Source: Armatimonadota bacterium (GTDB taxonomy: Bacteria; Armatimonadota; UBA10988). Taken from it: a stretch of DNA of 37,409 bases. The stretch covers positions 1 to 37,409 of the forward strand of contig JACRKZ010000040.1 of the NCBI GenBank assembly GCA_016235455.1, in the 5' to 3' direction. The position numbers and the translations under genes are program-made. Of the stretch, positions 3,960-35,091 are shown piece after piece. A model generated the notes under the pieces. That model searched no databases. It was not told the DNA's origin and saw only the letters and a program-made list of their open reading frames with translations. How positions within the stretch are numbered: position 1 is the stretch's first letter; the number at the start of each line of letters is the position of its first letter.

Positions 3960-6023
3960 TCAGACCGCGTGCTCGGTGCGAGCGATGACCTCGTCCTGCA
4001 TGCCGCGTTCGAGGTGAACGAAGTAATCGGAGTAGCCGGCCACGCGGACCACCAGGTCGCGGTACTGCTCCGGATCGGCCTGCGCCGCCAGCAGCGTCGC
4101 GCGGTCCTGCACGTTGACCTGGATCTCCAGGCCGCCACGCCGCAGATAGGTCTCGATGACCCCGCGCACGGCCGCGCGGCCGCTGGCCCGCGCGAAGGTG
4201 GCCGCGCCGAACTTCACGTTGTGTACCAGCCCGCCCAACGCTGCCTCGTGCGACCAGGTAGTCGTCGACAGCACTGCGGCGGTCGGCCCACACAACTCAC
4301 GGCCTTGGGCTGGGCCGGCGCCGTCGGCCAGCGGCTGACCGGCCCGTCGGCCGTCGGGGGTGGCGCCGGTCTGGCGACCCAGATGCTCGTGCTGGATCCA
4401 GCAGAAGAAACCCGGCACGTAGCGATGCCCGCCGATCTCGTGGCGGCTCGTCTCGTCCATCAGCCAGGTGGCCCACTCGCCGGCCAGCGCGTCAGCCTCG
4501 GCTTGGTCGTTGCCATAGTGCGGCAGCGCCGTGAGCACGCGCCGACGCAACGGCTCGGCACCAGCCCAGTCGGCGGCCAGCACCTCGGTCAGCTCGGCCA
4601 GGCTCAGCTCGCCCTGCTCATAGACCAGCCGCCGCACGGCCAGCAGGCCGTCCACCAGGTTGGCCAGCCCGACGAAGGAGTTCTCCACCCAGTGGTAGCG
4701 GCAGCCGCCCTGGTCGAAGTCGACGCCGCGCGCCACGCAGTCGGCCGTGAGCGCGCTGGCCAGCGGGAATCCGCCGGTTACCGCGCGCCGCCACCAAGTG
4801 GCATCGAGCGAGGTCGCGGCCTCGGCGATGCGCGCCGAGAGCACCGACCGCACCGCCGCTGACAAGGCGTCGAACGTGGCCGGCGCCGTGGCCAGCCCGT
4901 CGAGCAGGGCCTGGGCCAGGTTGAAGTACGGCGTAGCCACCCAGATGTTGCTCGCGCCGGCCACCTTGATCTCGACGCAGGTGCTGTTCATCCACCGGTA
5001 GCTGTCGGCCGCGCTCACGCCGTGAGCGCGCAGGCCATCGACAATGCACTGGTCGCCGAAGAACGCGGGGCAGCCGATGCCGCTGGCCAACATGCGCACG
5101 CCGTAGTCGACCAGTTCGTCGGGCGTGCCCTCATGCCAGGCGATGCCCACCGTCGGGTAGACCAGTTGCGTGGCCCGCCGCGCGGCCAGCGCCAGGTAGC
5201 TCAGATCGTTGGTCACATCCTGCCCGGCGGCATCACGCCCGCCGACGATGACCGCCAGCGCCAGCCCAGCAGGCACGATCTCGTTGAGCTGAATGTACAG
5301 GCAGCAGAGCAACTCGAAGGCGCGCTCGGGCGTGGTGCGCCCCCCGGCCAGGTCTGCCTCGTAGAACCCGCGCAGCACCTGGTCGACGCGGCCAGGGTTG
5401 GTCAGGTAATGGTCCTCGGCCACCTGCAGCGCGGCGATGGTCCCCCACATCAGCTGGGCCGCCTCGTGCAGCGTCGTCGGCGCCTGATGCGCGATGCGGC
5501 GGCACACCGCGCCGACCTCTGCGTCGGGGCAGGCCTCTCCCACCCGCTCGAACCAGGCGCTCAGCCCGCGTAGCGCCACGACGTCCGCGCGGCGCGACTC
5601 GGTGGGCTCCAGCGCTTCGATGTCGGCGATCAGGCCGTCGATGCCACGGCCGAACAGCGTCGGCCAGTCGGGATGCAGGTGCCCGCAGTCACCACCGGGG
5701 AATGCCGGGATCTCGGCCAGCACGGCCCGCGCGGCTGCCTGCGCGGCCTGATCGTCGGCCGTCTCGGCGCGGAAGCAGGGCCGTCCGACCAGCAGCTCGC
5801 CGGGAGAGAAGGACAACGGCATGGCCGCCAGCCGGGCCGCGACGCGTCTCGCGCGCCAGACCAGCCAGGGCTCATCGGCAGGGCGCGCCGTCCAGGCCTC
5901 GGCCTCGGCCAGCGTCAGCTCGGGCACGCCCGGCAGCGGCTGACGCTGAGTCTCCAGCGCCGCGTCGCGCAGCCCGCGTAGTACCGGTGAAAGGGTCCAG
6001 TCGAGCGTCGCGTCGCGGTCCAT
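3960..6023 (-). CDS. Glycyl radical enzyme (PFL-like family), substrate unknown
   Basis: C-terminal glycyl-radical motif LVVRVAGYS, 'GATPDGRRAG', single active-site Cys in NSTCVE. Start taken at ATG 6023, just after the activase stop. Confidence 0.9.
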   Translation of the reverse strand: MDRDATLDWTLSPVLRGLRDAALETQRQPLPGVPELTLAEAEAWTARPADEPWLVWRARRVAARLAAMPLSFSPGELLVGRPCFRAETADDQAAQAAARAVLAEIPAFPGGDCGHLHPDWPTLFGRGIDGLIADIEALEPTESRRADVVALRGLSAWFERVGEACPDAEVGAVCRRIAHQAPTTLHEAAQLMWGTIAALQVAEDHYLTNPGRVDQVLRGFYEADLAGGRTTPERAFELLCCLYIQLNEIVPAGLALAVIVGGRDAAGQDVTNDLSYLALAARRATQLVYPTVGIAWHEGTPDELVDYGVRMLASGIGCPAFFGDQCIVDGLRAHGVSAADSYRWMNSTCVEIKVAGASNIWVATPYFNLAQALLDGLATAPATFDALSAAVRSVLSARIAEAATSLDATWWRRAVTGGFPLASALTADCVARGVDFDQGGCRYHWVENSFVGLANLVDGLLAVRRLVYEQGELSLAELTEVLAADWAGAEPLRRRVLTALPHYGNDQAEADALAGEWATWLMDETSRHEIGGHRYVPGFFCWIQHEHLGRQTGATPDGRRAGQPLADGAGPAQGRELCGPTAAVLSTTTWSHEAALGGLVHNVKFGAATFARASGRAAVRGVIETYLRRGGLEIQVNVQDRATLLAAQADPEQYRDLVVRVAGYSDYFVHLERGMQDEVIARTEHAV

Positions 6024-6028
6024 GGCGG

Positions 6029-6967
6029 CTACACCTCGTTGACGACGGTCACACCCAGCGCGCGCAGGTCTCGGACCCATGAGGCCACGAGTTCGCGGCT
6101 GGGCGTCTCGAACACCTGCGGCTCGGGCGGCAGCCCCAAGCGCTCGCGCTTGCCGGTGCCCAGCCGGTGATAGGGCATGATCTCGAAGCCGAGCAGACCA
6201 GGCAACTCGCGTGACAGCGCCGCGACCATCAACCAACGCTCGGGCTGGTCGTTGACCCCTGGCACCGTGGGCAGCCGCACCAGGATCGACGCACCCGCGG
6301 CGTGCAGTTCGCGCAGGTTGGCCAGGATCGGCTCGTTGGGCGCACCGGTCAGATCACGGTGGCTGGCGCTGTCAGGCGCCTTCAGGTCCACCATCCACAG
6401 ATCGACCAGCGGCAGCAGGCGCTCATAGTCGGCCCACGGCGCGAGGCCGCAACTTTCTACGGCGCAGTGCAGGCCAGCCGCCTTGGCGCCGGCCAGCAGC
6501 GCATGGCTGAACTCGGGCTGTGCCAGCGGCTCGCCGCCGGACAGAGTCATGCCGCCGCCGCTGGTCTCGTAGAAGGGCCGGTCGCGCATGACCTCGGCCA
6601 GCGCCTCGCCGGCGGTCAGGTCGCGGCCGACCATCTGCAGCGCCTGGGCATGGCACTCGGCCACGCAGGCGCCGCACACCGTGCAATCGGCGCGGTCGAA
6701 CAGGTGGCGTCCCTCGGCATCCATGCTGTGTGCGCCGCGGGGGCAGGCGGCCACACACGCGCCACAGGCGATGCAACTCGCGGGGACGTAGGACAGTTGC
6801 AGCGCGCTCTCGCCACTTTCGGGATTGTGGCACCACAGGCAGCGCAGCGGGCAGCCCTTGAGAAAGACCGTCGTGCGGATGCCCGGCCCGTCGTGGATGG
6901 CGAAGCGCTGGATATCAAAAACACGCCCGACCGTGTTCAGGTCGGGCGTGTGAAGTCCTTGAGCCAT
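6029..6967 (-). CDS. Glycyl-radical enzyme activating protein (radical SAM with ferredoxin insert)
   Basis: 'HDGPGIRTTVFLKGCPLRCLWCHNPE' (CxxxCxxC), two CxxCxxCxxxC clusters and 'GGMTLSGGEPL'. Confidence 0.95.
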   Translation of the reverse strand: MAQGLHTPDLNTVGRVFDIQRFAIHDGPGIRTTVFLKGCPLRCLWCHNPESGESALQLSYVPASCIACGACVAACPRGAHSMDAEGRHLFDRADCTVCGACVAECHAQALQMVGRDLTAGEALAEVMRDRPFYETSGGGMTLSGGEPLAQPEFSHALLAGAKAAGLHCAVESCGLAPWADYERLLPLVDLWMVDLKAPDSASHRDLTGAPNEPILANLRELHAAGASILVRLPTVPGVNDQPERWLMVAALSRELPGLLGFEIMPYHRLGTGKRERLGLPPEPQVFETPSRELVASWVRDLRALGVTVVNEV

Positions 6968-15757: not shown

Positions 15758-15786
15758 ATTGTGCCCCTCCCGCGACGCAAGGTCAA
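15758..15786 (-). promoter_or_regulatory. Candidate sigma70 promoter for the dehydratase gene
   Basis: TTGACC-N17-CACAAT on the minus strand, about 25 nt before the ATG at 15732. Confidence 0.5.
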
Positions 15787-16412
15787 CCCGCTGGGTCAGG
15801 AGCCGGCAGGTCTACCGCCGCCGACAGCCCGCCGCAGGCATACACCTGCACGCGCCGCGCGTCTTTGGCCGCCAGGAACCGCACGCGCAGCCGCTGCTCA
15901 CCGGTTAGCAGGCCGTGCGCCAGCGGCACATACCGCGCGCCGTCCCAGACCTCGACCTGGCGCACCGCCAGTTGGATCTCGGCGACCACGCTGGCGCCGG
16001 AGCCACGCCGCCAACTGCGCAACGCGGCCCACTCCGCATCAGGATCGTCGATCTCGCGCCAGATGGCGAGTTCAGCCGGCTCCCACTCGACCGGGACATC
16101 GCTCTGCCGCCGCGGGGTGACCGTCACCTCCACCGAGTACGCCACCTCACCCTCGTCCAGCGATGGCTGGTCGCCACAGCGTTTGACGTCATGCACCAAC
16201 ATGCCGCAGTCCTTGGCGCCGCCAAGGCGAGCCGCAACGATGCGTGCGCCGGTCGCGCCAAGCCAGATCATCCGAGTCTGCGCCACCATGTACGCGGCAA
16301 AGGCCAGCAGCAATAGCGCGCCCCACCACGGCAGATGCGCGAGGGCGATGGCCAGGACAATGAGCAGCACCAGCAGCAAGCCGATGGCGACGTAGTAGCC
16401 GAGGGTCTTCAT
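15783..16412 (-). CDS. Hypothetical membrane-anchored protein, tandem paralog 3
   Basis: N-terminal TM pair with LPWWG; C-terminal 'VTVTP...WEPAEL...PLAHGLLTGEQRLRVRF' shared with its neighbours. Confidence 0.75.
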   Translation of the reverse strand: MKTLGYYVAIGLLLVLLIVLAIALAHLPWWGALLLLAFAAYMVAQTRMIWLGATGARIVAARLGGAKDCGMLVHDVKRCGDQPSLDEGEVAYSVEVTVTPRRQSDVPVEWEPAELAIWREIDDPDAEWAALRSWRRGSGASVVAEIQLAVRQVEVWDGARYVPLAHGLLTGEQRLRVRFLAAKDARRVQVYACGGLSAAVDLPAPDPAG

Positions 16413-16436
16413 CTTGTGTCCCCGCCCCGACAAGCG

Positions 16437-17042
16437 TTACGCCGCCGGCAAGTCCACCGGCACCGAGATGCCCCAGCCCACCTGCACCCGCACCTGCCGC
16501 ACCTCCGACGGCGCGACGAACTTGACGCGCAGACGCTGCTCACCAGTCAGCAGGCCATGAGCCAGGGGCATGAACTGCCCGTCCTCGAGCACCTGCATGC
16601 GCACCACGGCCACAGTGTCCGACACGGGCAAGGTGCAAGCGCGGCACGACCGTCGCCCACGCGGCTGGGGAGGCTGCACGGTGGCCGGCGCAGGCAGGAA
16701 CCGCAGCTCCGACGGCGCCCATTGCGTCGGCCGTTCGCCCAGTTGCCTGGGCGTCACCGTGAGCTCGATCCAGAAGACCGCGCCGTCGCCGGGCTCGACG
16801 TCGGTGCAACGCTCGACGCCGTGGACAAGCAGCCCGGTGCCCAGGCAGAAGCCCATCTGCTCGCTCATGCTGGCCACAGACGCCACGCCAAACGCCACCG
16901 GCGCCACCTGCCCGATGGTCCAGGCGGCCAGCGCCACCAGCAGCAACGCGCCCCACCACGGCAGGTGCGCGATGGCGACCGCCAGCACGATCAGCAGCAC
17001 CAACAACAGGCCGGCGCCGACACAGTAGATGAGGGCCTTCAT
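16437..17042 (-). CDS. Hypothetical membrane-anchored protein, tandem paralog 2
   Basis: LPWWG TM pair; 'LTVTP...WAPSEL...PLAHGLLTGEQRLRVKF'; GGGAG RBS. Confidence 0.75.
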   Translation of the reverse strand: MKALIYCVGAGLLLVLLIVLAVAIAHLPWWGALLLVALAAWTIGQVAPVAFGVASVASMSEQMGFCLGTGLLVHGVERCTDVEPGDGAVFWIELTVTPRQLGERPTQWAPSELRFLPAPATVQPPQPRGRRSCRACTLPVSDTVAVVRMQVLEDGQFMPLAHGLLTGEQRLRVKFVAPSEVRQVRVQVGWGISVPVDLPAA

Positions 17043-17095
17043 GGGCTCAGCTCCCCTTGGTCCAATCGCGCGCCGGCGCCGCGGAGTTCGGCCGT

Positions 17096-17719
17096 TCAGC
17101 CAGCGTCGACCATCCCTGGGAAGCGCACCTCGCCCAGGAACTCCAGGTAGTAGCGCAGCTTGGCCAGCGTGGCCTCGGGCTTGATGGCGGCCAGGAGCCT
17201 GACGCGCTGCGGGCCTTCATACTTGCCCTCCTCGTCCGGCCCGAAGGCGCCGTTCGACCAGACCAGCACCTCATGCACTTGGCCCACGTCCTCAGGCCCT
17301 TCGTCGTCGCGCATCGAGGGTGGCTTGGCATCGGGATGCGCCAGCGACAGGTCGCCCGGCTCCCAGTGCGTGAACCTGGCGCCTTGGGCCAGATGGGGCG
17401 TGATGGTCAGATCCAGCCAGTACCAGGCCAGGGGCTCGGCCGGCGTGACCGGTTCGTCATCGTCCTCGGGTTCGTCGACGCCGGTCGGTGCCACCGTCGC
17501 TTCGACCGCGTTCACCAGCAGGTCGGCTCCGCGCAGCGCGGCGCTCTTCATGCGGATGGGCGCGAGAATGAGGCGCGCGAAAAGCAGCGCGCCGACCGGC
17601 TTGGCCAGCAGGACGAGTGTTGCGATAAGCAGCAGACTGCCCCACCACGGCAGGTAGACGATGGCCGCGGCCAGGGCCAACAGCACCAGCAGCACCACTC
17701 CGACCAGGACTCGACACAT
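17096..17719 (-). CDS. Hypothetical membrane-anchored protein, tandem paralog 1
   Basis: LPWWG TM pair; 'LTITP...WEPGDL...GPQRVRLL'; GGAG RBS before ATG 17719. Confidence 0.75.
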   Translation of the reverse strand: MCRVLVGVVLLVLLALAAAIVYLPWWGSLLLIATLVLLAKPVGALLFARLILAPIRMKSAALRGADLLVNAVEATVAPTGVDEPEDDDEPVTPAEPLAWYWLDLTITPHLAQGARFTHWEPGDLSLAHPDAKPPSMRDDEGPEDVGQVHEVLVWSNGAFGPDEEGKYEGPQRVRLLAAIKPEATLAKLRYYLEFLGEVRFPGMVDAG

Positions 17720-32190: not shown

Positions 32191-33762
32191 ATGGCACAAG
32201 ATGGACTGCCGCCGGCGGTCGCGGGCCTGGCCAAGACCTATCTGGTCAACCGCACGCTGCTCCAGATCTATCTGGGCGATATCACCACGGCGGAAGTGGG
32301 CGCCGTGGTCAACCCCGAGCACCGCGACCTGGAGATGGACTCGCCCGACGGGCAGAGCGTCTCGGCGGCCATTCGGCGCGCCGGCGGCGAAGAGATTGCC
32401 ATCGCCCTCAAGGGCCACGGCCCCACCGAACTGGGCGAGGTCATCGCCACCCACGCTGGTGAGCTGCCGGCCAAGTTCGTGCTGCATGCGGCGGTGGTGG
32501 ATGAGGTCGACGGCCGGCTGCTGACCACCGAGGACATCATCGCCCAGGCGACGTTCAACGTGCTGCGGCGCGCCGACGCGCTGAACATCCGCACCATCGC
32601 CTTCCCCGCGTTCGGCGTCGGCCGCACCGACATCGACGACGAAGCCGCCGCGCGCGCGATGATCGGCACCATGACGCGCTATCTGCGCGGCACGACGCGC
32701 CTGGAACGCGTGGTGTTGGCGCTGGTGCAGCCGAGCACGTTCATCGCCTTCTTCGAGGCCGCCGTGCGCGACGCCCTGCAGCGCGAGAGCGCGCTGGAGC
32801 TCAATGTCGGCCGCACCGATGGCGACCTGACGTTCCACTTCGCCGGTGACGGCGCGGTGGTCAGCAAGTCGCAGGTGCCCTATGCCGCCGACGAGCTCGA
32901 CGCGGTCAATGAGCGGCTGCGGTCGCTGGCCAGCCAGACCATCGTGGGCGCGGACGATGTGGCCGAGCTGCGCGCGCTGGGTCGTCACCTCCACGATTCG
33001 TGCCTGAGCGACGAAGTCAAGGCGCAGCTGGCCGCCTCCGACGTCGAGAACCTGCTGCTGCGGCTCGACGAGACGGTCATGCACATCCCCTGGGAGCTGG
33101 CCCACGACGGGCAGCAGTTCCTCTGCCGCCGGTTCAACCTGGGCCGCCAGGTGGTGGCGCTACAGGCCTCGACCAGCACCGCGCCGCCGCCCACCGAGCC
33201 GCCGCGCCGCCTGCTGGTAGCGTTCAACCCCACCGGCGACCTGGACGGCGCCGAACGCGAGGCTCGGCTGCTGCTGTCGCACTTCGACGCCTCGCGCTGC
33301 CCGTGGACTGTCGAGGCGTTGGGGCACGAGCGGCTCGATCCGCTGCGCCTGGCGCTGGCCATCCAGGAGGCCGATATTGTGCACTACACCGGCCACGCCG
33401 ACCCCGGCGAGGGCGGCTGGCGGCTGAGTTCGGGCGTGTTCGGCGCCGAACGCTTCTCGCGCCTGGCACGCAAGCCGCGGCTGGTCTTCGCCAACGCCTG
33501 CCACACCGGCGGCGCGCTGGCGCTGGGCCATCAGTTCCTGCTGGCCGGAGTGCAGAGCTATGTCGGCAACCTGTGGACAGTGCCCGACGTGCCCGCCAGC
33601 ACCTTTGCCGTGGCCTTCTATGACGCGCTGCTGGCCGGCACCAACTTCGGCCGCGCCATGCGTATCGCCCGCGAGCGCGTGGCCGAGCTGCCCAGCGCCG
33701 GCGCGTTGGCCTGGGCCGGCTATGTGTTCTACGGCGACCCGCGGTGGCGGCTGGGGGTCTAG
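32191..33762 (+). CDS. Macro domain + CHAT (caspase-like cysteine protease) fusion protein
   Basis: Macro: 'LGDITT..VGAVVN', 'VSAAIRRAGG', 'THAGELPAKFVLHA', 'TIAFPAFGVG'. CHAT: 'IPWELAHDG', 'DLDGAEREA', 'IVHYTGHA' (His402), 'LVFANACHTG' (Cys437), 'FLLAGVQSYVGNLWTVPD', 'FYDAL', 'WAGYVFYGDP'. Confidence 0.9.
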   Translation: MAQDGLPPAVAGLAKTYLVNRTLLQIYLGDITTAEVGAVVNPEHRDLEMDSPDGQSVSAAIRRAGGEEIAIALKGHGPTELGEVIATHAGELPAKFVLHAAVVDEVDGRLLTTEDIIAQATFNVLRRADALNIRTIAFPAFGVGRTDIDDEAAARAMIGTMTRYLRGTTRLERVVLALVQPSTFIAFFEAAVRDALQRESALELNVGRTDGDLTFHFAGDGAVVSKSQVPYAADELDAVNERLRSLASQTIVGADDVAELRALGRHLHDSCLSDEVKAQLAASDVENLLLRLDETVMHIPWELAHDGQQFLCRRFNLGRQVVALQASTSTAPPPTEPPRRLLVAFNPTGDLDGAEREARLLLSHFDASRCPWTVEALGHERLDPLRLALAIQEADIVHYTGHADPGEGGWRLSSGVFGAERFSRLARKPRLVFANACHTGGALALGHQFLLAGVQSYVGNLWTVPDVPASTFAVAFYDALLAGTNFGRAMRIARERVAELPSAGALAWAGYVFYGDPRWRLGV

Positions 33763-33844
33763 GCCTACCGCGACTCGACCAGCGCCCGGTCGAGGGCGAC
33801 TGCCCGCCATTAAGAGTCGCGGCACACGGAGGTTCCTACTCACG

Positions 33845-34474
33845 GTGGATGTCGAAGCACTGCTCCTGGCCATGCGCGATGGTGACGAAGCCGCCGGCTC
33901 GACGCTGGTGGAGCGTTACCGGCCCTTCGTCGTGGCACGGCTGCGTGGCGCCAAGCACGCGCGCAACTGGTTCTGGCTCGACGACCTGGACGACGTGGCG
34001 CAGGCGGTGCTGGTGCGCTTCGTGGAAGCCGTGCGCGCCGAGCGCTTCCGCTTCCGCGACGAGAGCCAGTTGCGCGGGTTTCTGGTGCGCACGACGTTCT
34101 ACACGGTGATGAAGCGGCGCGACCAGATCACCGAGGCGCTGGGCGAGGACGACGAGCCGCGCCTGCACCTGCTGGCGCCCGAGCAGGCGGCCGCGTTCGA
34201 CCTGGGCCAGTTTGCCGACGCCGCGTTCGACACGCTCGGCCGGCGCCAGTGTCTGGACGAGCTGTATCGCGCGGTGGACAGCCTGCAGGAGGCGCGGTCC
34301 GAGGTGCTGCGGCTGACGCTGCTGGGCTTCGCCCCGCGCGAGATCGCGCCGGTCATGGGACGCAGCACCAATGCCGTATCGGTGCTCAAGACCCACGCGC
34401 TGGAAGACCTGCGCGCGGCGCTGGAGAAGACCGAGTTCATGACCAACTGTGGCCGCTACTTCCTGGGCGGCTGA
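33845..34474 (+). CDS. ECF (sigma-70 family) RNA polymerase sigma factor
   Basis: 'LLAMRDGDEAAGSTLVERYRP', region-2-like 'DDVAQAVLVRF...LRGFL', region-4-like 'LYRAVDSLQEARSEVLRL.LLGFAPREIAPVMGRSTNAVSVLKTHALEDLR'. GTG start after GGAGG. Confidence 0.88.
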   Translation: MDVEALLLAMRDGDEAAGSTLVERYRPFVVARLRGAKHARNWFWLDDLDDVAQAVLVRFVEAVRAERFRFRDESQLRGFLVRTTFYTVMKRRDQITEALGEDDEPRLHLLAPEQAAAFDLGQFADAAFDTLGRRQCLDELYRAVDSLQEARSEVLRLTLLGFAPREIAPVMGRSTNAVSVLKTHALEDLRAALEKTEFMTNCGRYFLGG

Positions 34475-34485
34475 CGGAGAAGGCA

Positions 34486-35091
34486 ATGCGTGCACGAGGC
34501 TTGGAGGCGGCTCTGACGGTGTTCTCGCCGGCGCGGCGCGGGTTCTGCCCGAGCCGTGAGGACCTGGTGTCCTATTTCGACGCCGTACTGACCGCCGAGG
34601 GCATGGCCGCCACGCGGGCGCACCTGGCCGTCTGCCCGTTCTGCACCGCCGATCTGGAAGACCTGACCGCCCTGGCCACGCCGCCGCTGCTCGAGGCCGT
34701 GGTGCAGATTGTGCGCGGCGGCCTGAAGCTGCTCAGCCACAGTTTCGAGGCGCACGCGGCGCTCACGCCGGCGACGGCGCGCGGCGCCGCGTCGGCCGCG
34801 GTCGAACTCACCACCGCCGCCGAAGACGGCGAACTGCACCTGCGTCTGCACCGCAACCCGGCCGCGTCGCCCGACTTGCGCGTGCAGTTGGCCGCGGTCA
34901 CCAGCCAGGGCCGCGTGCGGGTCAGCCTGTACCGCTCCGATGCACTACTGGAATCGCACCTGTCCGACGGCGACGAGGTGCTCTTTGCGGCCGTGGAGCC
35001 CGGCGACTATCGCCTCACGCTCGCCCCCGTGGACGGCGACGAAGTAGCGCGGGTGGCGCTGCGCATCGAAGACGAGACCGCCGGCAGTTGA
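34486..35091 (+). CDS. Zinc-finger (zf-HC2/ZAS) anti-sigma factor, soluble, with C-terminal beta-sandwich domain
   Basis: 'CPSREDLVSYFDAVL...AHLAVCPFC' (C...HxxxCxxC); directly after the sigma gene; no TM helix evident; C-terminal 'VLFAAVEPGDYRLTL'. Confidence 0.85.
   Translation: MRARGLEAALTVFSPARRGFCPSREDLVSYFDAVLTAEGMAATRAHLAVCPFCTADLEDLTALATPPLLEAVVQIVRGGLKLLSHSFEAHAALTPATARGAASAAVELTTAAEDGELHLRLHRNPAASPDLRVQLAAVTSQGRVRVSLYRSDALLESHLSDGDEVLFAAVEPGDYRLTLAPVDGDEVARVALRIEDETAGS

Follow-up and report, generated by a model that had tools for sequence, protein, structure and literature searches.

How could a bacterium turn a signal read by a Macro domain into transcription through a sigma factor? 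This question is raised by three genes that lie head to tail on the plus strand at positions 32191-35091 of a 37,409-nt stretch of DNA (hereafter the window, G+C content about 68%) from a groundwater Armatimonadota bacterium (GenBank assembly GCA_016235455.1, contig JACRKZ010000040.1, positions 1 to 37,409). They encode a Macro-CHAT fusion protein, a sigma factor of the extracytoplasmic function (ECF) type and a soluble zinc-binding anti-sigma (ZAS) factor. An initial annotation, made from the DNA letters without database searches, had singled out these co-oriented neighbours as a candidate ADP-ribose-sensing proteolytic cascade, and the genes were found where it had placed them, with gaps of 82 nt between Macro-CHAT and sigma and 11 nt between sigma and anti-sigma. 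We give an even chance to the reading that the trio is a cytoplasmic proteolytic switch, in which sensing of a ligand by the Macro domain would lead the CHAT protease to cut the anti-sigma, thereby freeing the ECF sigma. Behind this reading stand the domain identities, a conserved catalytic dyad, a linkage of the genes across phyla with swapped sensors, and a controlled docking model, all of which we show below.

32191..33762, plus strand: Macro-CHAT gene, an open reading frame of 523 aa plus stop (Pfam Macro and CHAT; AlphaFold2 model)
33845..34474, plus strand: ECF-type sigma gene, 209 aa from the GTG at 33845, with an alternative ATG at 33872
34486..35091, plus strand: soluble anti-sigma gene, an open reading frame of 201 aa plus stop

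Domain composition of the three proteins

Both halves of the fusion passed their Pfam cut-offs, Macro (PF01661) with 62.2 bits against 22 (E 5.7e-17, residues 40-157) and CHAT (PF12770) with 113.4 bits against 24 (E 1.8e-32, residues 262-516). The AlphaFold2 model of the whole protein had a mean predicted local distance difference test (pLDDT) score of 88.4 and a predicted template modelling (pTM) score of 0.73. The His/Cys dyad that had been read as intact proved to be His402 and Cys437, both invariant across a 62-row alignment of the CHAT subfamily. Between the two Pfam domains lies a conserved extension (residues ~201-261), which aligns in all members of the subfamily, Macro-bearing or not.

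32308..32661, plus strand: Macro domain core, residues 40-157 by Pfam (whole fold, residues ~12-198)
32791..32973, plus strand: conserved alpha+beta extension on the N-terminal side of the CHAT domain as delimited by Pfam, residues ~201-261, with strands and helices in the model
32974..33738, plus strand: CHAT caspase-like protease domain, residues 262-516 (Pfam, profile and Foldseek)
33394..33396, plus strand: codon of catalytic His402, invariant, position checked
33499..33501, plus strand: codon of catalytic Cys437, invariant, position checked

Profile comparison of the CHAT part returned 8tl0_A (5.3e-8), DdvA (8rot_B), separases and Csx29, and the closest folds found with Foldseek were the separases and the TPR-CHAT protein of Craspase (Csx29, 7y85_D). 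For the Macro part, a profile of the Macro-CHAT clade matched the macro domains of PARP14 (2.9e-35), TTHA0132 (4.7e-31), YmdB (1.6e-24) and macroH2A1.1 (7e-22) in the PDB, and Foldseek placed it beside TTHA0132 (template modelling (TM) score 0.86), an O. iheyensis macrodomain (0.85) and macroH2A1.1 (0.82-0.83). Overall, TM scores of the fold against macroH2A1.1, TTHA0132 and MacroD-type domains ranged from 0.79 to 0.86.

Among 12 Macro-CHAT proteins sharing 30-81% identity, G29, D30, D46, M49, P139, A140 and G142 are invariant, and little or no variation is seen in Asp30 of the GDIT motif or in the FPAFGV loop. We take this aspartate, as the adenine-contacting Asp, and the FPAFGV loop to be the ADP-ribose-contacting residues of macrodomains. 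The fold and these conserved ligand-loop residues are the observations that bear on ADP-ribose, or an ADP-ribosylated protein, as a hypothetical trigger. Loop 1 (window 32308-32380, residues ~40-63; consensus DL.MD.P.G.SVSAAIRR, with D46 and M49 invariant) carries a four-residue insertion that is common to all Macro-CHAT proteins and absent from TTHA0132 and other macrodomains; it may mark an unusual ligand.

We also considered that the Macro domain may be mainly an enzyme, an ADP-ribosyl or O-acetyl-ADP-ribose hydrolase, with the fusion coupling removal of ADP-ribose to proteolysis of the same target. YmdB and MacroD-type enzymes do figure among its structural and profile neighbours, and the nearest NCBIfam models include O-acetyl-ADP-ribose deacetylases as well as ADP-ribose-binding proteins, but the scores fall far under the equivalog cut-offs (best 67 bits against 252) and the clade-specific insertion replaces the glycine-rich catalytic loop. 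Moreover, the top neighbours include, beside the MacroD-type enzymes and TTHA0132, the macro domains of macroH2A1.1 and PARP14, which we take to be non-hydrolytic readers, and a sister clade has an FHA reader at the same position. That no SIR2 gene was found in the bacterium's own genome, which is 93% complete, also argues against an enzymatic role, and we regard this alternative as very improbable.

SIR2 had been looked for as a source of ADP-ribose in that genome; the same search matched 10 of 14 control genomes. PARP and DarT were not found there either, yet these searches matched nowhere in the controls and are thus uninformative. Two TIR_2 matches were present, one of them inside a TIR-CHAT fusion. 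TIR domains are NAD+-consuming signal generators, and the TIR-CHAT protein is a possible source of ADP-ribose-type ligands that is unlinked to the window. The fusion lies on another contig of the genome (L003, G000:C28:90215-92451; open reading frame L003:514-2235, plus strand, truncated by the contig end) and scores 8.3e-19 for TIR_2, 6.6e-5 for ThsB_TIR and 2e-21 for CHAT. A third CHAT protein of the genome, a 1119-aa open frame (L001, G000:C122:9234-12463), gives its best Pfam CHAT match (1.8e-69).

The sigma factor was assigned through its family. A profile of 44 rows, comprising the window sigma and homologues adjoining related CHAT genes, matched solved ECF sigmas (6in7_B, 4.8e-22; RpoE 1or7_A, 1.6e-21; SigW, 3.1e-19) over positions 1-195, that is, over the whole length of a protein of about 200 aa with regions 2 and 4 only. 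Among the 44 family members, Sigma70_r4_2 was detected in 38, Sigma70_r2 in 22 and Sigma70_ECF in 9. Judged by this family-level homology, the protein is a divergent sigma of ECF (group 4) type, in line with the annotated identity.

The anti-sigma was likewise recognized through its relatives. Its family profile matched the anti-sigma domains of RslA (9.6e-6), ChrR (5.7e-5), RsiW (4.7e-4) and DdvA (8rlz_A, 0.0011), its look-alikes by a protein language model were zf-HC2 clusters (score 0.95), and two relatives pass the zf-HC2 cut-off on their own (L045 with 31.5 bits, 1.9e-7; L112 with 38.4 bits, 1.3e-9). The HxxxCxxC motif noticed in the initial annotation corresponds to H46, C50 and C53, nearly invariant in a 49-row alignment, and the absence of a membrane helix follows from a highest 19-residue Kyte-Doolittle mean of 1.13. 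By homology and adjacency, the protein would bind the neighbouring sigma.

34546..34644, plus strand: zinc-binding anti-sigma motif C21...H46-x3-C50-x2-C53 (alignment and profile matches)

The model of the anti-sigma (mean pLDDT 86.4, pTM 0.72) consists of three helices (residues 24-64) followed by a beta domain (residues 68-196). This C-terminal domain is an immunoglobulin (Ig)-like beta-sandwich, for which Foldseek searches of the PDB gave only generic Ig and fibronectin type III folds, with no neighbour at E<=0.001. The anti-sigma beside the one distant Macro-CHAT that retains the pair (L124:2905-3594, plus strand) has two tandem H-x3-C-x2-C motifs, followed by the conserved Arg-Gly and the beta domain.

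Predicted docking and a candidate cleavage site

Complex prediction for CHAT residues 190-523 with the anti-sigma, a pairing for which the initial annotation had proposed modelling, gave scores of 0.82, 0.80 and 0.80 (median 0.80), in comparison to 0.00 for all three controls. Among reference cases, 58 of 80 solved complexes and 2 of 110 mismatched pairs attained the score mark applied here, a calibration that is only approximate because our own alignments were used as input. The runs had at least 92% of their contacts in common, with a partner pLDDT of 76. The prediction supports binding between CHAT and anti-sigma, favouring it rather than demonstrating it, and places the Ig-like domain against one strand of the protease and its flanks.

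33217..33348, plus strand: predicted docking surface on CHAT, residues 343-386, mainly strand 373-381 and its flanks
34918..35034, plus strand: anti-sigma residues predicted to touch CHAT, residues 145-183, in the Ig-like beta-sandwich
34780..34782, plus strand: codon of Arg99, candidate scissile P1 residue (conservation; loop in the model)

Conservation within the anti-sigma family pointed to a possible site of cleavage. Besides H46, C50, C53 and Y175, the sole nearly invariant residue is Arg99, which is Arg in 47 of the 49 rows and is followed by Gly in 28 and Ser in 11 (39 rows together). A hydrophobic residue and prolines come before it, and the stretches on either side vary in length and sequence. 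In the model it falls in the loop formed by residues 95-104, the least confident internal part (block 91-100, mean pLDDT 69). Separase, which is among the structural neighbours of the CHAT domain, cleaves after Arg (PMC11506125). On these grounds of conservation and modelling, Arg99 is a candidate cleavage site.

The switch that we propose would operate as follows. At rest, the N-terminal zinc-binding three-helix domain of the anti-sigma would hold the sigma, and the Ig-like C-terminal domain would be docked on an edge strand of CHAT, away from the active site. Activation would begin at the Macro domain, with the binding of a ligand that contains ADP-ribose, be it a free nucleotide derived from NAD+ or a protein that has been ADP-ribosylated. 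The His402/Cys437 dyad would then turn active, possibly in trans after oligomerisation, and the anti-sigma would be cut, most likely after Arg99 in its exposed loop. Loss of the N-terminal anti-sigma fragment would allow the sigma to bind RNA polymerase. The anti-sigma would thereby act as a two-part adaptor, with a ZAS domain for the sigma and an Ig-like domain for the protease. Experimental precedents for this layout are CalpL-CalpT-CalpS and Csx29-Csx30-CASP-sigma; sigma binding, the ligand, the cleavage with its site, and the regulon are the parts of the scheme that we infer. FHA stands in place of Macro in the nearest relatives that share this gene order, which suggests that the signal may just as well be a modified protein, bearing phosphothreonine in the one case and ADP-ribosyl in the other, as a nucleotide in free form.

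Distribution and genomic setting of the module

The initial annotation had likened the trio to systems in which a sensor-protease, an anti-sigma and an ECF sigma act in series. We scanned one genome per species with the CHAT part, which yielded 151 stretches, 148 of them confirmed, and used the best-scoring 80, which are not a random sample; apart from the window, all loci considered here come from genome or metagenome assemblies. All reading frames of the 80 loci were searched with profiles of the window sigma and anti-sigma that had been iterated on the same loci where the matches were counted, with independent Pfam searches covering 6 proteins and the 44 sigma rows. Matches comprised 57 sigma and 61 anti-sigma reading frames, and 54 of the latter span at least 150 aa and so include the C-terminal domain. 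On distant members, the sigmas passed Sigma70_r4_2, Sigma70_r2 and Sigma70_ECF, and the anti-sigmas passed zf-HC2.

A strict trio, with sigma and anti-sigma both adjoining CHAT on the same strand, was present in 48 of the 80 loci and in at least 10 phyla. Strict pairs were found in Thermodesulfobacteriota (13/20), Omnitrophota (6/8), Myxococcota (5/19), Planctomycetota (4/6), Armatimonadota (4/5) and Nitrospirota (3/3), and further phyla include Hydrogenedentota, Nitrospinota and Binatota. The gene order is sigma-anti-sigma-CHAT in 43 of the 48 and CHAT-sigma-anti-sigma in five, namely four loci of the bacterial family to which the window belongs (family f1) and one of Hydrogenedentota (L112). 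In ten further loci the pair is truncated where a contig stops, is split, or lies within 6 kb on the opposite strand, and five of the 80 have less than 600 bp of upstream flank.

On this shared CHAT core the sensors are swapped. Macro occurs in family f1 and in the clade of L122-L128, and an N-terminal FHA domain in L112 and L103; Macro and FHA are both readers of protein modifications. Other additions are an N-terminal class III cyclase and, in most loci, a C-terminal membrane helix, TPR and CsgG/LpoB/FlgO-like domain. When 90 CHAT domains were placed on a tree, the Macro-CHATs of f1 and those from elsewhere grouped with the FHA-CHATs and with four pair-linked proteins of the transmembrane type in one clade with a Shimodaira-Hasegawa-like approximate likelihood ratio test (SH-aLRT) support of 98, and pair-linked loci are spread all over the tree, which came from a quick search with long branches flagged. 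CHAT, sigma and anti-sigma are thus a conserved module with a variable sensor, and the recurrence of the trio, together with the docking model, lends weight to the logic first proposed.

A simpler account of this linkage is co-regulation, with CHAT merely an output gene of the sigma's regulon or operon and the pair regulated conventionally. ECF sigmas are commonly found in operons with their targets, and the sigma-anti-sigma-CHAT order in 43 of 48 loci is what an autoregulated operon with a downstream target would be expected to show. Casas-Pastor et al., in the portion of PMC7826278 used here, note that context alone cannot separate regulators from targets. The complex score of 0.80 against 0.00 for the controls speaks against co-regulation, as does the C-terminal domain of the anti-sigma, which is specific to the family and which, in strong full-length matches, occurs in the phylum only in genomes that have this CHAT. 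A soluble anti-sigma also needs an input, and CHAT proteins are the only genes with sensor domains that we saw at the loci. We therefore consider co-regulation alone distinctly unlikely.

Several variants of the module were observed. In Thermodesulfobacteriota and other phyla (L044-L118, e.g. L045:2370-8346 and L115:7609-8964), a larger version has a TPR/Ig/CsgG-LpoB-like lipoprotein upstream of the sigma and a CHAT protein with a membrane helix, TPR and LpoB/FlgO-like domain, and in 25 loci a FadL/TodX-like outer-membrane protein follows the CHAT gene. This suggests an envelope-sensing version of the module, and the wider CHAT family looks envelope-associated. At one locus (L064:3142-5857), sigma-like and anti-sigma-like matches, two of each, are arranged in tandem ahead of the CHAT gene, and its open frame 3814-5073 matches both profiles and may be a fusion or a duplicated pair.

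The fusion of Macro to CHAT is itself rare. A word-indexed protein search returned 27 proteins, 15 of which carry both domains, 14 at 74-93% identity and one (P0016) at 38%. Among 1.84 billion cluster representatives at 50% identity, 407 proteins matched the whole Macro-CHAT query at E<=1e-30; in the best 150 of these, only eight (P0004, P0029-P0035) matched from Macro through the end of CHAT, with one more partial (P0039), which makes the fusion rare and the CHAT subfamily large. A further member of the subfamily, P0026 (556 aa), has an N-terminal part that aligns with the Macro region, for which Pfam gave only a Peptidase_M17_N-like match (E 0.0013). The Peptidase_M17_N domain has a macro-like fold, and the N-terminus of P0026 may be a second, degenerate Macro-type sensor. 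A tblastn search of plasmids with the Macro-CHAT query found no Macro-CHAT; three records had partial CHAT-only matches (27-30% identity, at most 57% coverage).

Within Armatimonadota, the fusion and the anti-sigma have the same distribution. Across 401 genomes, full-length Macro-CHAT occurs only in family f1, in all five of its other genomes (one fragmented). Across 121 genomes, full-length matches to the anti-sigma (93-140 bits) were confined to the six f1 genomes, all with Macro-CHAT; other genomes of the phylum reached at most 57.5 bits, mostly over the N-terminal part, with two weak matches (44.8 and 39.3 bits) covering most of the model. The 6.5-Mb genome of the window has one full-length member of the anti-sigma family, 724 bp after Macro-CHAT. 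This phyletic match within f1 counts as one evolutionary event. The nearest relatives of the proteins are from metagenome-assembled genomes named Fimbriimonadaceae or Armatimonadota. Within f1, Macro-CHAT is more conserved (77-82% identity) than lysA (66-71%), the sigma (55-64%) and the anti-sigma (47-58%), and its halves are about equally conserved (Macro 75-84%, CHAT 80-88%).

The setting of the trio bears on the anti-phage role that had been suggested. In the window, lysA lies immediately upstream and ends 5 bp short of Macro-CHAT, and the downstream neighbours are MTHFR and the gene of a xylose-isomerase-like TIM barrel; elsewhere are rho, hpt, guaA, pyruvate:ferredoxin oxidoreductase, a glycyl-radical enzyme, an ABC transporter and similar genes. 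By Pfam, 20 other genes of the window belong to housekeeping or metabolic families. As the initial annotation had stated, no cas family was found among the window genes scanned. PADLOC reported no defence family, with zero matches for sigma and anti-sigma and only a weak BovA match for Macro-CHAT (E 0.0092, 13 bits). The trio is present in all six f1 genomes, adjoining lysA and surrounded by housekeeping genes. The order lysA, Macro-CHAT, sigma, anti-sigma is retained in three other f1 genomes (G056, G029 and G015), and the contig of a fourth (G069) starts within Macro-CHAT and continues with sigma and anti-sigma. The trio is a core, syntenic trait of one bacterial family, outside any variable island. 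It resembles a signalling pathway that f1 has inherited vertically, unlike a mobile defence island, and the anti-phage role is not supported, given the presence of the trio in every genome of the family, its housekeeping surroundings and the lack of defence-family matches.

An alignment of the Macro-CHAT/sigma intergenic region from eight f1 loci contained no recognisable ECF-type -35/-10 promoter from which a regulon could be inferred; its sole conserved stretch is a short TAAGA...GGTTC near the ribosome-binding site. One metatranscriptome run on bioreactor material (X17, with 0.07 of sampled words) contained contigs of a relative differing at ~3-10% of bases, which overlap parts of Macro-CHAT and sigma, and one 474-nt contig crosses the sigma/anti-sigma junction (34379-34791). 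The same relative occurs in a DNA run from a similar sample type (X9). We do not count the X17 contigs as proof of transcription, since DNA can occur in RNA libraries and the contigs carry neither strand nor level, and DNA runs with a small share of matching words carry no information on habitat.

Two other features of the window were observed. On the minus strand at 15786-17698 lie three tandem paralogues of ~200-216 aa each, with a very similar hydrophobic start segment; the one that was scanned (15786-16433) had no Pfam match. Also on the minus strand, at 3963-6754, the glycyl-radical enzyme (PFL-like 2e-80, Gly_radical 2.4e-23) adjoins a radical S-adenosylmethionine activase. Armatimonadota is usually described as an aerobic phylum.

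Several findings weigh against the proteolytic switch. In the docking model the interface is an exosite, and the Arg99 loop is not placed at the active site. The clade-specific loop 1 insertion of four residues takes the place of the usual glycine-rich motif, so that the ligand may differ from plain ADP-ribose. Scored as single sequences, the window sigma stayed under the curated cut-offs (Sigma70_r4_2 21.8-23 bits against 25.7, Sigma70_r2 14.8 against 24, TIGR02937 37.4 against 42.9), as did the anti-sigma for zf-HC2 (PF13490; 14.6 bits against 22.2, E 0.038); of the Pfam assignments foreseen in the initial annotation, those of Macro and CHAT held for the window proteins taken alone, and those of sigma and anti-sigma were seen above the cut-offs in relatives. 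A zinc-binding anti-sigma could answer oxidants on its own. Seventeen of the 80 CHAT loci, mostly from one Myxococcota clade, have at least 2.9 kb of upstream flank and no pair. In the f1 genome G043 (L041, G043:C20), the pair lies ~5 kb upstream of Macro-CHAT on the opposite strand, beyond lysA (sigma L041:420-1007, minus strand; anti-sigma from L041:2-364, minus strand), which is a local rearrangement that keeps the genes near one another.

Distant relatives of the fusion weigh against it as well. A metagenome scan with the Macro-CHAT alignment gave 12 loci, in which genes of high-GC sequences were called by weighting G+C at third codon positions (GC3). Three f1-like loci have sigma and anti-sigma downstream. 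Among seven distant Macro-CHAT loci with usable flanks, six (L122, L123 and L125-L128) lack a sigma or anti-sigma homologue at E<=1e-3 within flanks of 1.4-6.0 kb downstream and 1.2-6.0 kb upstream, and L124 has the pair. The six have unrelated neighbours, namely glycosidases, TPR proteins, a GH25 lysozyme and a giant protein with a CAP domain. Monophyly of the 15 Macro-CHAT rows was not rejected in an approximately unbiased (AU) test (p 0.751), and the tree constrained to it was 7.89 log-likelihood units better, so that the pair would have been lost, or be encoded elsewhere, in a Macro-CHAT subclade. Macro-CHAT can therefore exist without an adjoining pair. The linkage that the initial annotation had proposed to examine is borne out for the CHAT subfamily, with 48 of 80 loci, and fails for most of the distant Macro-CHATs, with one of seven.

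In a different account, the protease does not cut the anti-sigma but is inhibited by it, or uses it as an adaptor, in a docked and securin-like manner. The real targets would be other proteins, for example ADP-ribosylated ones brought in by the Macro domain, and the sigma would be released, along with the protease, on some other cue, for instance when the zinc site is oxidised. A contact at an exosite far from His402/Cys437 would suit an inhibitor of this kind, separase is the closest fold of the CHAT part, and the near invariance of H46, C50 and C53 is as in redox-sensing ZAS proteins; the six distant Macro-CHATs without a neighbouring pair would in any case require a function that is independent of it. 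However, docking alone hardly explains the Arg99 loop with its variable flanks, and many ZAS anti-sigmas are not redox sensors. CalpL-CalpT itself, as far as the portion of its description used here goes, combines docking at an exosite with a distant cut, partly in trans. We regard the inhibitor account as unlikely, if deserving of some weight, and return to the switch, in which the anti-sigma is the substrate.

A bolder form of the proposed switch holds that CHAT proteases gated by readers of modifications or nucleotides, Macro for ADP-ribose here and FHA for phosphothreonine in the sister clade, cut a pre-docked anti-sigma after Arg independently of CRISPR and so pass ADP-ribosyl or NAD+-derived signals straight on to an ECF-sigma programme, which would make Macro-CHAT the first ADP-ribose-gated protease and the module a widespread route of ECF activation. 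We put this forward tentatively, as possible but rather doubtful. If the proposed switch is real, ECF sigmas, which rank among the largest signalling families of bacteria, would gain in at least 10 phyla a further activation route through cytoplasmic, caspase-like cleavage of a soluble anti-sigma outside CRISPR. ADP-ribose signalling in bacteria would be read out directly as transcription, and macrodomains would acquire a new effector partner. Macro, FHA, cyclase and periplasmic TPR inputs would constitute modular switches on one protease/anti-sigma/sigma chassis, and this family of sensors, proteases and sigmas could be a source of orthogonal parts in synthetic circuits. Whatever the ligand, the outcome of the comparison holds, namely that three genes form a conserved module, with a docking domain that is predicted and a P1 Arg that is a candidate. 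The module is widespread and directly testable, and its underlying logic is already known.

Relation to known systems

The comparisons in this section draw on portions of the cited papers. The initial annotation knew of no description of this architecture, and within the literature searched this stands for the particular composition of the system and not for the general idea. In a computational study, Kaur, Iyer, Burroughs and Aravind (2021, PMC8195603) described EACC2-caspase proteins with variable domains, including macro, adjoining ECF sigmas, and proposed signal-induced activation of the peptidase with a transcriptional output. The idea of macro-bearing caspases beside ECF sigmas is thus partly anticipated by their work. 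Common to both systems are a caspase core, variable sensors including macro, and a neighbouring ECF sigma; the EACC2 alpha+beta domain before the caspase core may have a counterpart here in the conserved alpha+beta extension (residues ~201-261). By contrast, the EACC2-caspases have C-terminal variable domains and a DUF1822 TPR partner, whereas Macro is N-terminal here and the partner is an anti-sigma of ZAS and Ig-like domains; no DUF1822 match was found by Pfam in any protein scanned. Our literature search found neither a Macro-CHAT with a ZAS anti-sigma nor an Ig-like docking domain, although supplementary group descriptions or source data may list the module, and the main text of Casas-Pastor et al. 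2021 contains no mention of 'CHAT', 'caspase' or 'peptidase'.

For ECF54, proteolytic control by neighbouring CHAT proteins has been proposed (PMC8999054), and carboxypeptidase and subtilase neighbours have been noted as well. ECF54 is described as actinobacterial and without an anti-sigma (PMC7826278), whereas an anti-sigma is present here. In DdvA-DdvS of Myxococcus xanthus, a transmembrane ZAS domain is fused to a periplasmic TPR-CHAT, and CHAT-dependent release of the ECF sigma has been proposed (PMC11506125). The parallel with our trio is the coupling in function of a ZAS domain to a CHAT domain that has a His-Cys dyad, and both domains of DdvA were matched by our profiles. DdvA is one membrane protein with proposed self-cutting, whereas the protease and anti-sigma here are separate and soluble, with a Macro sensor.

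In Craspase (type III-E), the TPR-CHAT protein Csx29 cleaves Csx30, whose N-terminal domain binds CASP-sigma (PMC10028731). The likeness lies in a CHAT protease paired with a sigma inhibitor, and the CHAT domain of Csx29 (7y85_D) is a structural neighbour of ours. Craspase is activated by target RNA via Cas7-11; in our locus the protease has no TPR, and there are no cas genes and no Csx31. No Csx30-like match was found for the anti-sigma, either with profiles at E<=1 or with Foldseek.

The closest parallel in layout is CalpL-CalpT-CalpS, which comprises a SAVED-Lon protease activated by cyclic tetra-adenylate (cA4), a soluble anti-sigma and an ECF-like sigma (bioRxiv 10.1101/2024.05.08.593097). 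CalpT holds the sigma with its N-terminal part and docks on the protease, off the active site, through a small C-terminal domain; it is cut within a stretch of little structure (same source). The tripartite logic is shared, and the docking that we predict has the same layout. The parts differ, with CHAT in place of Lon, Macro in place of SAVED, ZAS and Ig-like domains in place of MazF-like and DUF2080 domains, and no CRISPR context. Since their defining components are absent, the trio is not a member of the CalpL-CalpT-CalpS, Craspase or DdvA type, and it would work alike.

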